Source of the DNA: Candidatus Parcubacteria bacterium
Lineage (GTDB): Bacteria > Patescibacteriota > Patescibacteriia > UBA1558 > GWA2-36-10
Length of the DNA stretch: 64,000 nt
Reading direction: 5' to 3'
Assembly: GCA_018664825.1 (NCBI GenBank)
Contig: JABJNO010000017.1
Location: forward strand, 50,743 to 114,742
A model generated the notes under the pieces. It was not told the origin of the DNA. It saw nothing but the letters and a program-made list of their open reading frames with translations, and searched no databases. A program made the position numbers and the translations under genes. Below, in pieces: positions 15,598-17,256 of the stretch (position 1 is its first letter; each line of letters starts with the position of its first letter).

Positions 15598-17256
15598 TTA
15601 TTTTCTTTTTATTCCGAACAAGGATAATTTATTTTCGATTTTTTTATTTACAATCATACGTAAAAAGGTACGGGTAACAGTAATAGCAGAAAACATTGAG
15701 ATCATAATACCGATCGCTAGGGTGATAGCAAATCCTTTGACAATAGAAGTACCAAACCAAGCCAAGATCAAACAAGTGATGATTGATGAGACATTTGAGT
15801 CTCTGATAGATGGCCAGGCTCTAGAAAATCCATTTTCAACAGCAGTATGTAGACTGCGACCTGTTTTTAGTTCTTCTTTGGTTCTTTCAAAAATCAATAT
15901 ATTGGCATCAACGGCCATACCAATAGACAAGATAAATCCAGCTACACCAGCCAGGGTAAGCACTACATTGAGGCTTTCAAAAATAGCTAGAGTCAAGATT
16001 GTATATATAGCCAAAGCAAGTACAGAGATAAGGCCAGGTAAACGATAAAATAAGAGCATAAATAAAGCTGCAGCCAAAAGTCCAATAATACCAGCCAGTA
16101 AACTTTTTTGTACAGAAATATGACCCAAGGTAGCCCCAACAGTCTGTTGGCTAATGATTTCTATAGGTACTGGTAAAGCACCTAGGTTGAGATCTTTGAT
16201 TAGGGTTTTTGCTTCTGGGATAGTAAAATTACCAGAAATCTGAGCTTGTCCGTCAGTGATTTTGTCTTGGACAACTGGACTAGACCTCAAGAAACCATCG
16301 AGGAAAATTGCCACAGGTTCACCGAGATGTTCTTCTGTTATTTTGGCAAATATATCTTTACCTTGATCATTGAAGTTTATTAGTACAAGTGGCTCTTGGG
16401 TGTTTTGTTGAAAAGCTAGTTGAGCTTTCTCGATATCTTTACCGGTTAGACCAGCGTCTACCCAATTTATATTATCAGTTAAAGCAGCTGCCTTCTGGAA
16501 TAAAACATGTGAAGACAATACTTCCATCTGACCTTGATCGTTTATTTTTTCGTCAATTTTGTTGATTATATGATAGCCAAGATCTGATTCTACAAGTTCT
16601 GGAGAGATATCTCCTACTTTCATGTCTTCAAAAACTGCTTTATCAAACTCTGGTACAAAGTAGCCAGCTAGTTGCCAACCGAGGTCTCCGCCATTTACAG
16701 CAGATCCTGGGTCTTCACTATATTCGGTGGCAAGATTTGCAAAATCTTCACCAGCCAAAGCACGGGCTAGTACATCTTCAGCATTTTGACGTACTTCGTC
16801 AATTTCTTGGATATCAGACTCCTCCTCTATTATAGGTTCACCTTGGACCTTAAATTCCAAAAGAGGTGTCTTGTCAATAATAGCTACTGCTTCATTGACA
16901 TCTTTGATACCAGCAAGCTCTACGATGATTCTATAGCTGTCACCACTGTAGTTTGTCTGGATAAGTGGTTCAGACACTCCATAGGCATTTACACGACGTT
17001 CTATGACGTCTCGAAGGGCTTCTACACCATCTTTTTTGACATCATCTTCCAATTGAGAGACATCAGCCTTGTAAACTAAATGGGTACCACCTTGTAAATC
17101 AAGTCCTAAACGGAGCTTGAAATTACCGAACCAGCCCGGGCTAGTAGGCCAAACCATCAGGGTTGTAAATATAGTAAGGAATACTATAAAAATAAAGCTA
17201 GCCCGTATTTGGTTGGTAGTCACTCTTTTTTGATTTGGTTTGTTGTAATTTGTCAT
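15598..17256 (-). CDS. secD: Protein-export membrane protein SecD (with a parvulin-like PPIase signature in the periplasmic domain)
   Basis: N-terminal transmembrane helix, P1 head, C-terminal 6-TM SecD core. Internally: [60 protein letters not shown]. Confidence 0.85.
   Translation of the reverse strand: [552 protein letters not shown]

Follow-up and report, generated by a model that had tools for sequence, protein, structure and literature searches.

A SecD from the Candidate Phyla Radiation with an inserted, predicted circularly permuted parvulin in its periplasmic P1 region

Does a subunit of the Sec export machinery carry its own folding factor? The question is raised by an open reading frame of 552 codons (ATG start, plus stop) at positions 15598 to 17256, minus strand, of a 64,000-nucleotide stretch from a Candidatus Parcubacteria bacterium (GenBank assembly GCA_018664825.1, contig JABJNO010000017.1), which we call the window. 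An earlier note on this DNA, made from the letters alone, had taken the product for an otherwise typical SecD whose P1 head holds a parvulin-type peptidyl-prolyl isomerase (PPIase) signature, either circularly permuted or inserted, and had proposed that such a fusion couples export with folding. By analogy with known partnerships, we read the protein as a SecD with an inserted, permuted parvulin that would act as a translocon-tethered foldase or holdase beside the P1 head, and we give this reading a probability of about 0.6.

Judged by its sequence, the protein is a genuine SecD, a subunit of the SecDF export motor, from the Patescibacteria (candidate phyla radiation, CPR). It scores 385.7 bits against the NCBIfam model TIGR01129 (cut-off 244.4), covering model positions 1–397, and its Pfam domains follow the order Sec_GG (residues 42–65), SecD_1st (79–136), SecDF_P1_head (268–363) and SecD_SecF_C (365–537), which bears out the words ‘otherwise typical’. 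The architecture is that of a SecD, with a first transmembrane (TM) helix, a periplasmic P1 region made of base and head, and a C-terminal SecD_SecF_C bundle of five TM helices. In sequence searches the closest solved relatives are the SecDF proteins of Thermus thermophilus and Deinococcus radiodurans, the top match in the PDB being T. thermophilus 3AQP (E 2e-73), and the full-length AlphaFold2 (AF2) model likewise has its best matches in these SecDF crystal structures, with E 1e-25. All parts of the gene lie on the minus strand. TM1, at residues ~17–37 (17146–17208), coincides with a hydrophobic stretch and an AF2 helix at 14–35. The N-terminal part of the P1 base (SecD_1st, 16849–17022; PF21760, E 2.3e-16), which aligns with T. 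thermophilus SecDF residues 9–121, ends in the conserved LLEFK strand. The P1 head subdomain, residues 265–363 (16168–16464; PF22599, E 9.6e-27, profile 19–114), aligns with T. thermophilus SecDF from residue 160 onward. The TM bundle (15646–16164), delimited by Pfam and by alignment with the same protein, includes D450, whose motif aligns with AVDGNVLSFER of T. thermophilus; D450, N452, E457 and R458 do not vary among 70 aligned homologues with 55–83% identity, the set on which the conservation counts below are based. D450 corresponds to T. thermophilus D340, the conserved TM aspartate of the proton pathway within AVDGNV.

The gene for the partner subunit, secF (14694–15596, minus strand; 300 amino acids; SecD_SecF_C, E 4.5e-59, plus Sec_GG), begins 2 nucleotides past the secD stop codon. 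This gene order recurs on independent contigs, and secDF has housekeeping genes (ddl, a methyltransferase) as its neighbors. The protein shares with the canonical SecDF structures (T. thermophilus 3AQP/5YHF; D. radiodurans 5XAM/5XAN) the N-terminal TM helix, the P1 base and head, the RND-like TM bundle, the conserved AVD(A/G)N...FER motif and a partner SecF, although SecD and SecF are separate genes here. A second difference is found at the base/head junction, where T. thermophilus has 38 residues and this SecD has a parvulin with its tethers, some 120 residues more.

The parvulin is recognized far beyond chance by two Pfam models: Rotamase_3 (PF13616) matches residues 150–236 with 80.1 bits (E 2.4e-22; gathering score 22.5), and Rotamase (PF00639) matches residues 147–233 with 72.2 bits (E 7e-20; gathering score 21.7). 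NCBIfam models for SurA and PrsA give sub-threshold matches over residues 140–242. The signature that had first drawn attention consists of the stretch FANLATEY...GYHIINKI, residues 172–234 (16555–16743), and of EVLSSHVLF, residues 245–253 (16498–16524), and both lie inside a module that we place at residues 146–256 (16489–16821). Alignment with T. thermophilus SecDF pairs query residues 22–141 with 9–121 and residues 270–537 with 160–427; therefore, 128 query residues occupy the place of 38, and the intervening segment does not align to a canonical P1. The region matching query residue 270 begins at residue 160 of T. thermophilus SecDF and at residue 328 of E. coli SecD, so the insertion point is a length-variable spot among SecDs. 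The insert is predicted to have the parvulin fold, a four-stranded antiparallel sheet with four helices, and it is a parvulin by both sequence profile and predicted fold. The proposed location has to be amended in one respect: the domain does lie in the periplasmic P1 region, but the Pfam boundaries put it where the P1 base and the P1 head meet and not within the head proper. No match to SurA_N, SurA_N_2 or SurA_N_3 occurs in the protein at E <= 1, and the insert has no lipid or single-TM anchor of its own, being held only through the TM helices of SecD. With neither a SurA_N/NC domain nor an anchor, it may act like PrsA without being a member of the PrsA, PpiD or SurA families.

An unusual domain combination invites the suspicion that a chimeric assembly or a sequencing error has joined two genes. 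Apart from the unusual architecture itself, the one thing that speaks for such an artefact is an NCBI copy of the same SecD that is just 341 amino acids long. We rejected this explanation as having a negligible probability: 13 independent contigs, drawn from different samples, encode the identical 552-residue protein, the reading frame is unbroken with SecD sequence on both flanks of the insert, and all 120 of the closest homologues listed, which come from several sources, combine PF00639/PF13616 with the SecD domains. Where these homologues are named, they belong to Komeilibacteria, Parcubacteria, Nomurabacteria or a ‘Patescibacteria group’. At least seven more distant fusions, with 38–50% identity across the insert, occur in species-representative genomes labeled Buchananbacteria or Patescibacteria and in two metagenome-assembled genomes (MAGs) labeled Lysobacteraceae and Bathyarchaeia. 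The fusion architecture is conserved across many CPR lineages.

Public annotation gives little sign of it. The closest homologues listed are annotated merely as ‘SecD’. The short NCBI record (P0096) lacks the N-terminal part of the protein, including the parvulin, so the annotation of the identical SecD hides the fusion. The two MAGs with discordant labels, Lysobacteraceae (contig GC 29.7%) and Candidatus Bathyarchaeia, carry a CPR-type SecD-parvulin fusion, and their contigs are most likely mis-binned. One further protein, P0122 (456 amino acids), combines a TM anchor, a permuted parvulin of the SecD type that is 61% identical to that of P0020, and an uncharacterized C-terminal region of 240 residues, without SecD; as a singleton on one 9-kb Logan contig with no full-length homologues, it was given no weight as a second architecture.

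We now ask whether the insert is an ordinary parvulin or a rearranged one. In PrsA, strand β1 stands at the N side of the parvulin, with the sequence KIRASHILV. The canonical order is β1-α1-α2-α3-β2-α4-β3-β4, and the insert does not follow it: the Rotamase_3 match begins at profile position 31 of 116 and the Rotamase match at 10 of 97, leaving unmatched the part of each profile that holds β1. Among the 70 homologues, none has a β1-like motif, or any histidine, between the SecD LEF strand and α1, while 69 have a β1-like motif past β4. The family consensus of this trailing segment is EVHSAHILF, in which H250 is invariant (70/70) and I/V251 and L252 are kept in about 68 of 70. The first strand thus follows the rest of the domain, as the earlier note had proposed from a single sequence, and its two alternatives, permuted or inserted, both apply. 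Since β1 is absent from the N side and a strand follows β4, the insert is a circular permutant and not a canonical member of the parvulin family; its order reads α1-α2-α3-β2-α4-β3-β4-β1′, where β1′ (residues 244–254; 16495–16527) is the permuted counterpart of the canonical first strand, identified by the AF2 model, by conservation and by de-permutation.

De-permutation consists of placing residues 241–256 before residues 146–240, with a shuffled strand as control. Against Rotamase_3, the de-permuted construct scores 90.2 bits (profile 16–115), the native insert 83.9 bits (31–115) and the control 84.9 bits; against Rotamase, the corresponding scores are 78.8 (profile 1–95), 75.1 and 75.6 bits. 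We also built a hidden Markov model (HMM) from 24 canonical parvulin domains of non-CPR loci and compared each de-permuted sequence with 20 composition-matched shuffles. The mean gain over the shuffles is 8.8 bits, and 68 of the 70 members beat all 20. The AF2 model of the insert only (residues 140–266) has a core predicted local distance difference test score (pLDDT) of 95–98 and a predicted template modeling score (pTM) of 0.78. Its elements run helix, helix, short helix, strand, helix, short strand, long strand, long strand; strand 244–254 forms a hairpin with β4 (227–238) across a five-residue turn, β2 (191–196) is assigned as a strand, and the remaining core superposes on canonical parvulins at 1.5–2 Å. 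The trailing strand can be deduced to occupy the β1 slot between β2 and β4, because it is the sole partner left for β2 and the rest superposes canonically; the deduction draws on secondary-structure assignment and superposition in the model.

The same data bear on the alternative that the insert is not permuted at all, its β1 slot being empty or filled by the SecD strand LLEFKV (133–138) and the SHVLF segment being a vestige of a lost second repeat. Two observations lend it some color: the corresponding strand of a tandem parvulin is part of the domain that follows, and the phmmer alignment with the Bacteroides fragilis structure 8hm4 reaches back to query residue 130, across the LEF strand. 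The insert-only model, however, omits the LEF strand and still folds with high confidence, its trailing strand paired to β4. LLEFK is a universal motif of the SecD base subdomain, and the linker that joins it to the parvulin is variable and has a pLDDT below 50. H250 is invariant even though no second repeat comes after it, and the gain from de-permutation is specific relative to shuffles. We consider this alternative very improbable, and the LEF strand was rejected as β1, given that the model folds without it and that no N-side β1-like motif exists in the homologues.

The permuted order is not confined to SecD. Two stand-alone, TM-anchored foldases with SurA_N and Rotamase domains, L012 from Saccharibacteria and L027 from Magasanikbacteria, likewise have no β1 at the N side and only an sHIL strand past β4. 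Across 44 analyzed members of this family (of 1,540 matches), the N-side β1 motif is found in none, the trailing A[RS]HILF segment contains its histidine in 41, and de-permutation yields a gain of 6.3 bits, with 42 members above all shuffles. The PrsA-, PpiD- and SurA-like proteins sampled outside the CPR have the canonical order (L029, L038) or are ordinary tandems (L033, L042). On these alignments, the permutation is common to the SecD insert and the stand-alone CPR foldases and is not specific to SecD. The two groups have the same strand order; unlike the insert, the stand-alone proteins have their own TM anchor and a SurA_N chaperone domain, and their β4-β1′ loop is longer, with a median of 28 versus 20 residues between the two histidines. 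Among the best 120 matches listed for each, the named lineages of fusions and stand-alone foldases do not overlap, and neither do the lengths of their longest contigs. The genes of the stand-alone proteins (L083, 10001–10984; L085, 10001–11041) lie within a conserved cluster of Translin, Mur ligase, DivIC, foldase, FtsE and FtsX genes, a setting that suggests a connection with cell division and the synthesis of the wall. Neither this cluster nor another parvulin motif or a separate prsA occurs within the 64-kb window. With a permuted order shared by both groups, the parvulin fold would have been circularly permuted in nature.

Tandem parvulins offer a possible source. In these proteins, β4 of the first repeat is followed, after about 10 residues, by β1 of the second, and the same β4-loop-β1 arrangement is seen at the P1-P2 junction of E. 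coli SurA, in P0135 (GYHIVKLLERKPARGEIEVSHILARF) and in B. fragilis 8hm4 (GFHIIQLIEKRGDRINTRHILLK); the alignment with 8hm3_B spans 111 residues. A PDB sequence search with the C-terminal part of P0267 gave nothing relevant, and a 52-residue query gave a weak PrsA match only. In SurA-type tandems (E. coli SurA 1M5Y; B. fragilis PPIase 8HM3/8HM4), the trailing strand is the β1 of the next repeat and an N-side β1 is also present, whereas the SecD insert has the helices and strands of one repeat and no N-side β1. A permuted unit would result if α1 to β4 of one repeat were kept together with β1 of the next. Such a window, shifted by one strand along a tandem parvulin, produces the permuted unit and equals the classical route of duplication followed by truncation. 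By this comparison, a tandem, SurA-like parvulin is the most plausible source of the permuted order.

We next consider whether the insert could catalyze prolyl isomerization. The de-permuted insert was aligned with human Pin1 and E. coli Par10, and on this alignment the Pin1 residues H59, S111, C113, L122, M130, F134, T152 and H157 correspond to H250, S180, D182, L192, F200, F204, S224 and H229. Each of these insert residues is invariant or at least 93% conserved among the 70 homologues, and the basic loop with which Pin1 binds phosphate is absent from the insert in the same alignment. Therefore, with a conserved pocket and no basic loop, the insert has the look of a PrsA/Par10-type parvulin that is competent and non-phospho-specific.

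The way the domain is attached matters for its possible role. The N-side tether, residues ~139–150 (16807–16842), is acidic and variable in both length and sequence, with a pLDDT below 50 at 143–150; the C-side tether, residues ~257–264 (16465–16488), falls below 50 at 257–262. Alignment columns 139–158 are poorly conserved, and across the family the tethers span 16–34 residues on the N side and 9–16 on the C side, with weak sequence conservation. The models thus suggest a flexibly tethered module that is not a rigid part of P1.

SecDF is thought to move its P1 head by the proton-motive force (PMF), thereby pulling on emerging chains (PMC9643414; 10.1101/2025.04.25.650208). With a parvulin on two flexible tethers at the P1 base/head hinge, beside the mobile head and over the SecYEG exit, unfolded chains leaving SecY or the P1 head could be met by the parvulin while SecDF captures and pulls them. 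The domain would bind the chains as a holdase and isomerize their prolyl bonds as a foldase, and both activities would speed folding and limit back-sliding. The insert would then be a covalent counterpart to PpiD, PrsA or the Mdp proteins of Mycoplasma at work next to SecDF. The published precedents are non-covalent: PpiD touches SecD's periplasmic domain and cooperates with SecDF (PMC9643414); the PrsA-like Mdp proteins of M. pneumoniae form a dome on SecYEG-SecDF, in which substrate density touches an active PPIC domain (10.1101/2025.04.25.650208); and Mpn444 crosslinks to SecD (10.1101/2024.09.05.611430). An interaction of SurA with the inner-membrane Sec machinery is also reported (PMC9987972). 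A coupling of export to folding by fusion would fit these partnerships of parvulins with SecD or SecDF (PMC9643414; 10.1101/2025.04.25.650208; 10.1101/2024.09.05.611430).

Several points weigh against a tethered, catalytic foldase. PPIase catalysis is dispensable for SurA and has been questioned for PpiD (PMC9643414). Two distant Buchananbacteria fusions, L006 and L010, have GGLYKGV and GGLYSAV in place of the β2 motif GGDLGW, and in L010 the histidine of the trailing strand is a glutamate; the inserts of both look like catalytically degenerate versions. Some lineages may have lost catalysis but retained the domain, and catalysis may not be the selected function everywhere. The β1-slot placement of the trailing strand and the adjacency of H229 and H250 are deduced from strand assignment and superposition statistics and not from coordinates. 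Finally, the pTM of the full-length AF2 model is 0.49; therefore, that model does not define where the parvulin stands with respect to the P1 head.

The degenerate motifs of L006 and L010, and the doubts about the importance of the PpiD parvulin domain (PMC9643414), also favor a reading in which the fold is only an extra substrate-binding surface that enlarges the P1 head, as in the far larger P1 of E. coli SecD, with catalysis irrelevant. Such an enlargement would suit the length-variable insertion point as well. The conservation of S180, D182, H229, H250, L192, F200 and F204, all invariant or nearly so in the 70 close homologues, exceeds what maintenance of a fold needs, and we regard a holding role without catalysis as doubtful. 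Still less probable, in our view, is a specialized role in place of general folding, such as docking SecDF to pili, to a type IV secretion system (T4SS) or to a cell-wall synthesis machine, or gating the movement of the P1 head. Genes for VirD4-like ATPases and T4SS pilins nearby, and the cell-division cluster that houses the stand-alone CPR foldases, would be in keeping with it. The secDF neighborhoods, however, are of the housekeeping kind, those systems are not conserved beside secDF across contigs, no evidence points to a specific partner, and the insert is a generic, non-phospho-specific parvulin lacking the basic loop of Pin1.

Comparison with the separate foldases shows what the fusion reading would add. 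PpiD-YfgM of E. coli and Vibrio resembles the fusion in being a membrane-anchored parvulin chaperone above SecYEG that contacts SecD and cooperates with SecDF (PMC9643414). PpiD is nevertheless a separate protein with its own TM anchor, SurA_N-type chaperone domains and a parvulin of canonical order; in the fusion the parvulin stands alone, covalently within SecD. PrsA of B. subtilis and other Firmicutes is a dimeric lipoprotein with an NC chaperone domain into which its parvulin is inserted, while the SecD insert has no NC domain and a permuted strand order. The M. pneumoniae proteins Mdp436, Mdp444 and Mdp489 likewise place a PrsA-like parvulin directly above the translocon beside SecDF (10.1101/2025.04.25.650208; 10.1101/2024.09.05.611430), but they form a large, non-covalent, heterotrimeric lipoprotein chamber that is reported to be unique to Mycoplasma, in contrast to one small domain in SecD.

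SecD and parvulin are each well known; what is new is their covalent, permuted arrangement and not the kind of system, and precomputed Pfam annotations show the two domains together. In the full-text literature, taken without most subscription journals, we came across neither a SecD-parvulin fusion nor a permuted parvulin. How Sec export is coupled to extracytoplasmic folding is an active question, pursued with E. coli PpiD-YfgM and SecDF and with the PrsA-like dome of Mycoplasma. Such a fusion, natural and conserved, is evidence of the Rosetta-stone kind that a parvulin foldase and SecDF share both substrate and place; two functions that are divided between separate proteins in other bacteria are united here in a single one, and the fusion provides a compact, single-gene and testable natural experiment on this coupling. 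Tentatively, and with rather less assurance than for the tethered parvulin itself, we suggest that the Patescibacteria possess an undescribed class of circularly permuted parvulins, which a large subset of these bacteria has built into SecD as a single-polypeptide machine that pulls and folds. If so, the PMF-driven P1 head would hand chains straight to a tethered isomerase, replacing a separate PpiD, PrsA or Mdp foldase, and the protein would amount to the translocation-folding complexes only recently visualized in Mycoplasma, in a form that is minimal and genetically fused.

Other features of the window can be stated briefly. Of 53 ORFs of at least 150 amino acids, 50 are on the minus strand, an extreme bias, and across positions 1–64000 the cumulative GC skew declines steadily past ~24 kb; all of the 64-kb window is probably on one replichore. 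Two VirD4/TrwB-like coupling ATPases (668 and 815 amino acids), a DUF8128 protein (500 amino acids) and two small T4SS_pilin genes are found at 9842–13357, 31412–33859 and ~22000–22700, a set that resembles a type IV secretion or pilus-like system of the CPR type in the vicinity of secDF. Directly downstream of secF, positions 13469–14629 encode a 386-residue protein with Sigma70 region 4 and HARE-HTH but no region 2, an unusual sigma-like architecture that is conserved on other contigs. At 24540–26264 lies the large subunit of an [FeFe]-hydrogenase, 574 amino acids long, with ferredoxin-like N-terminal domains.

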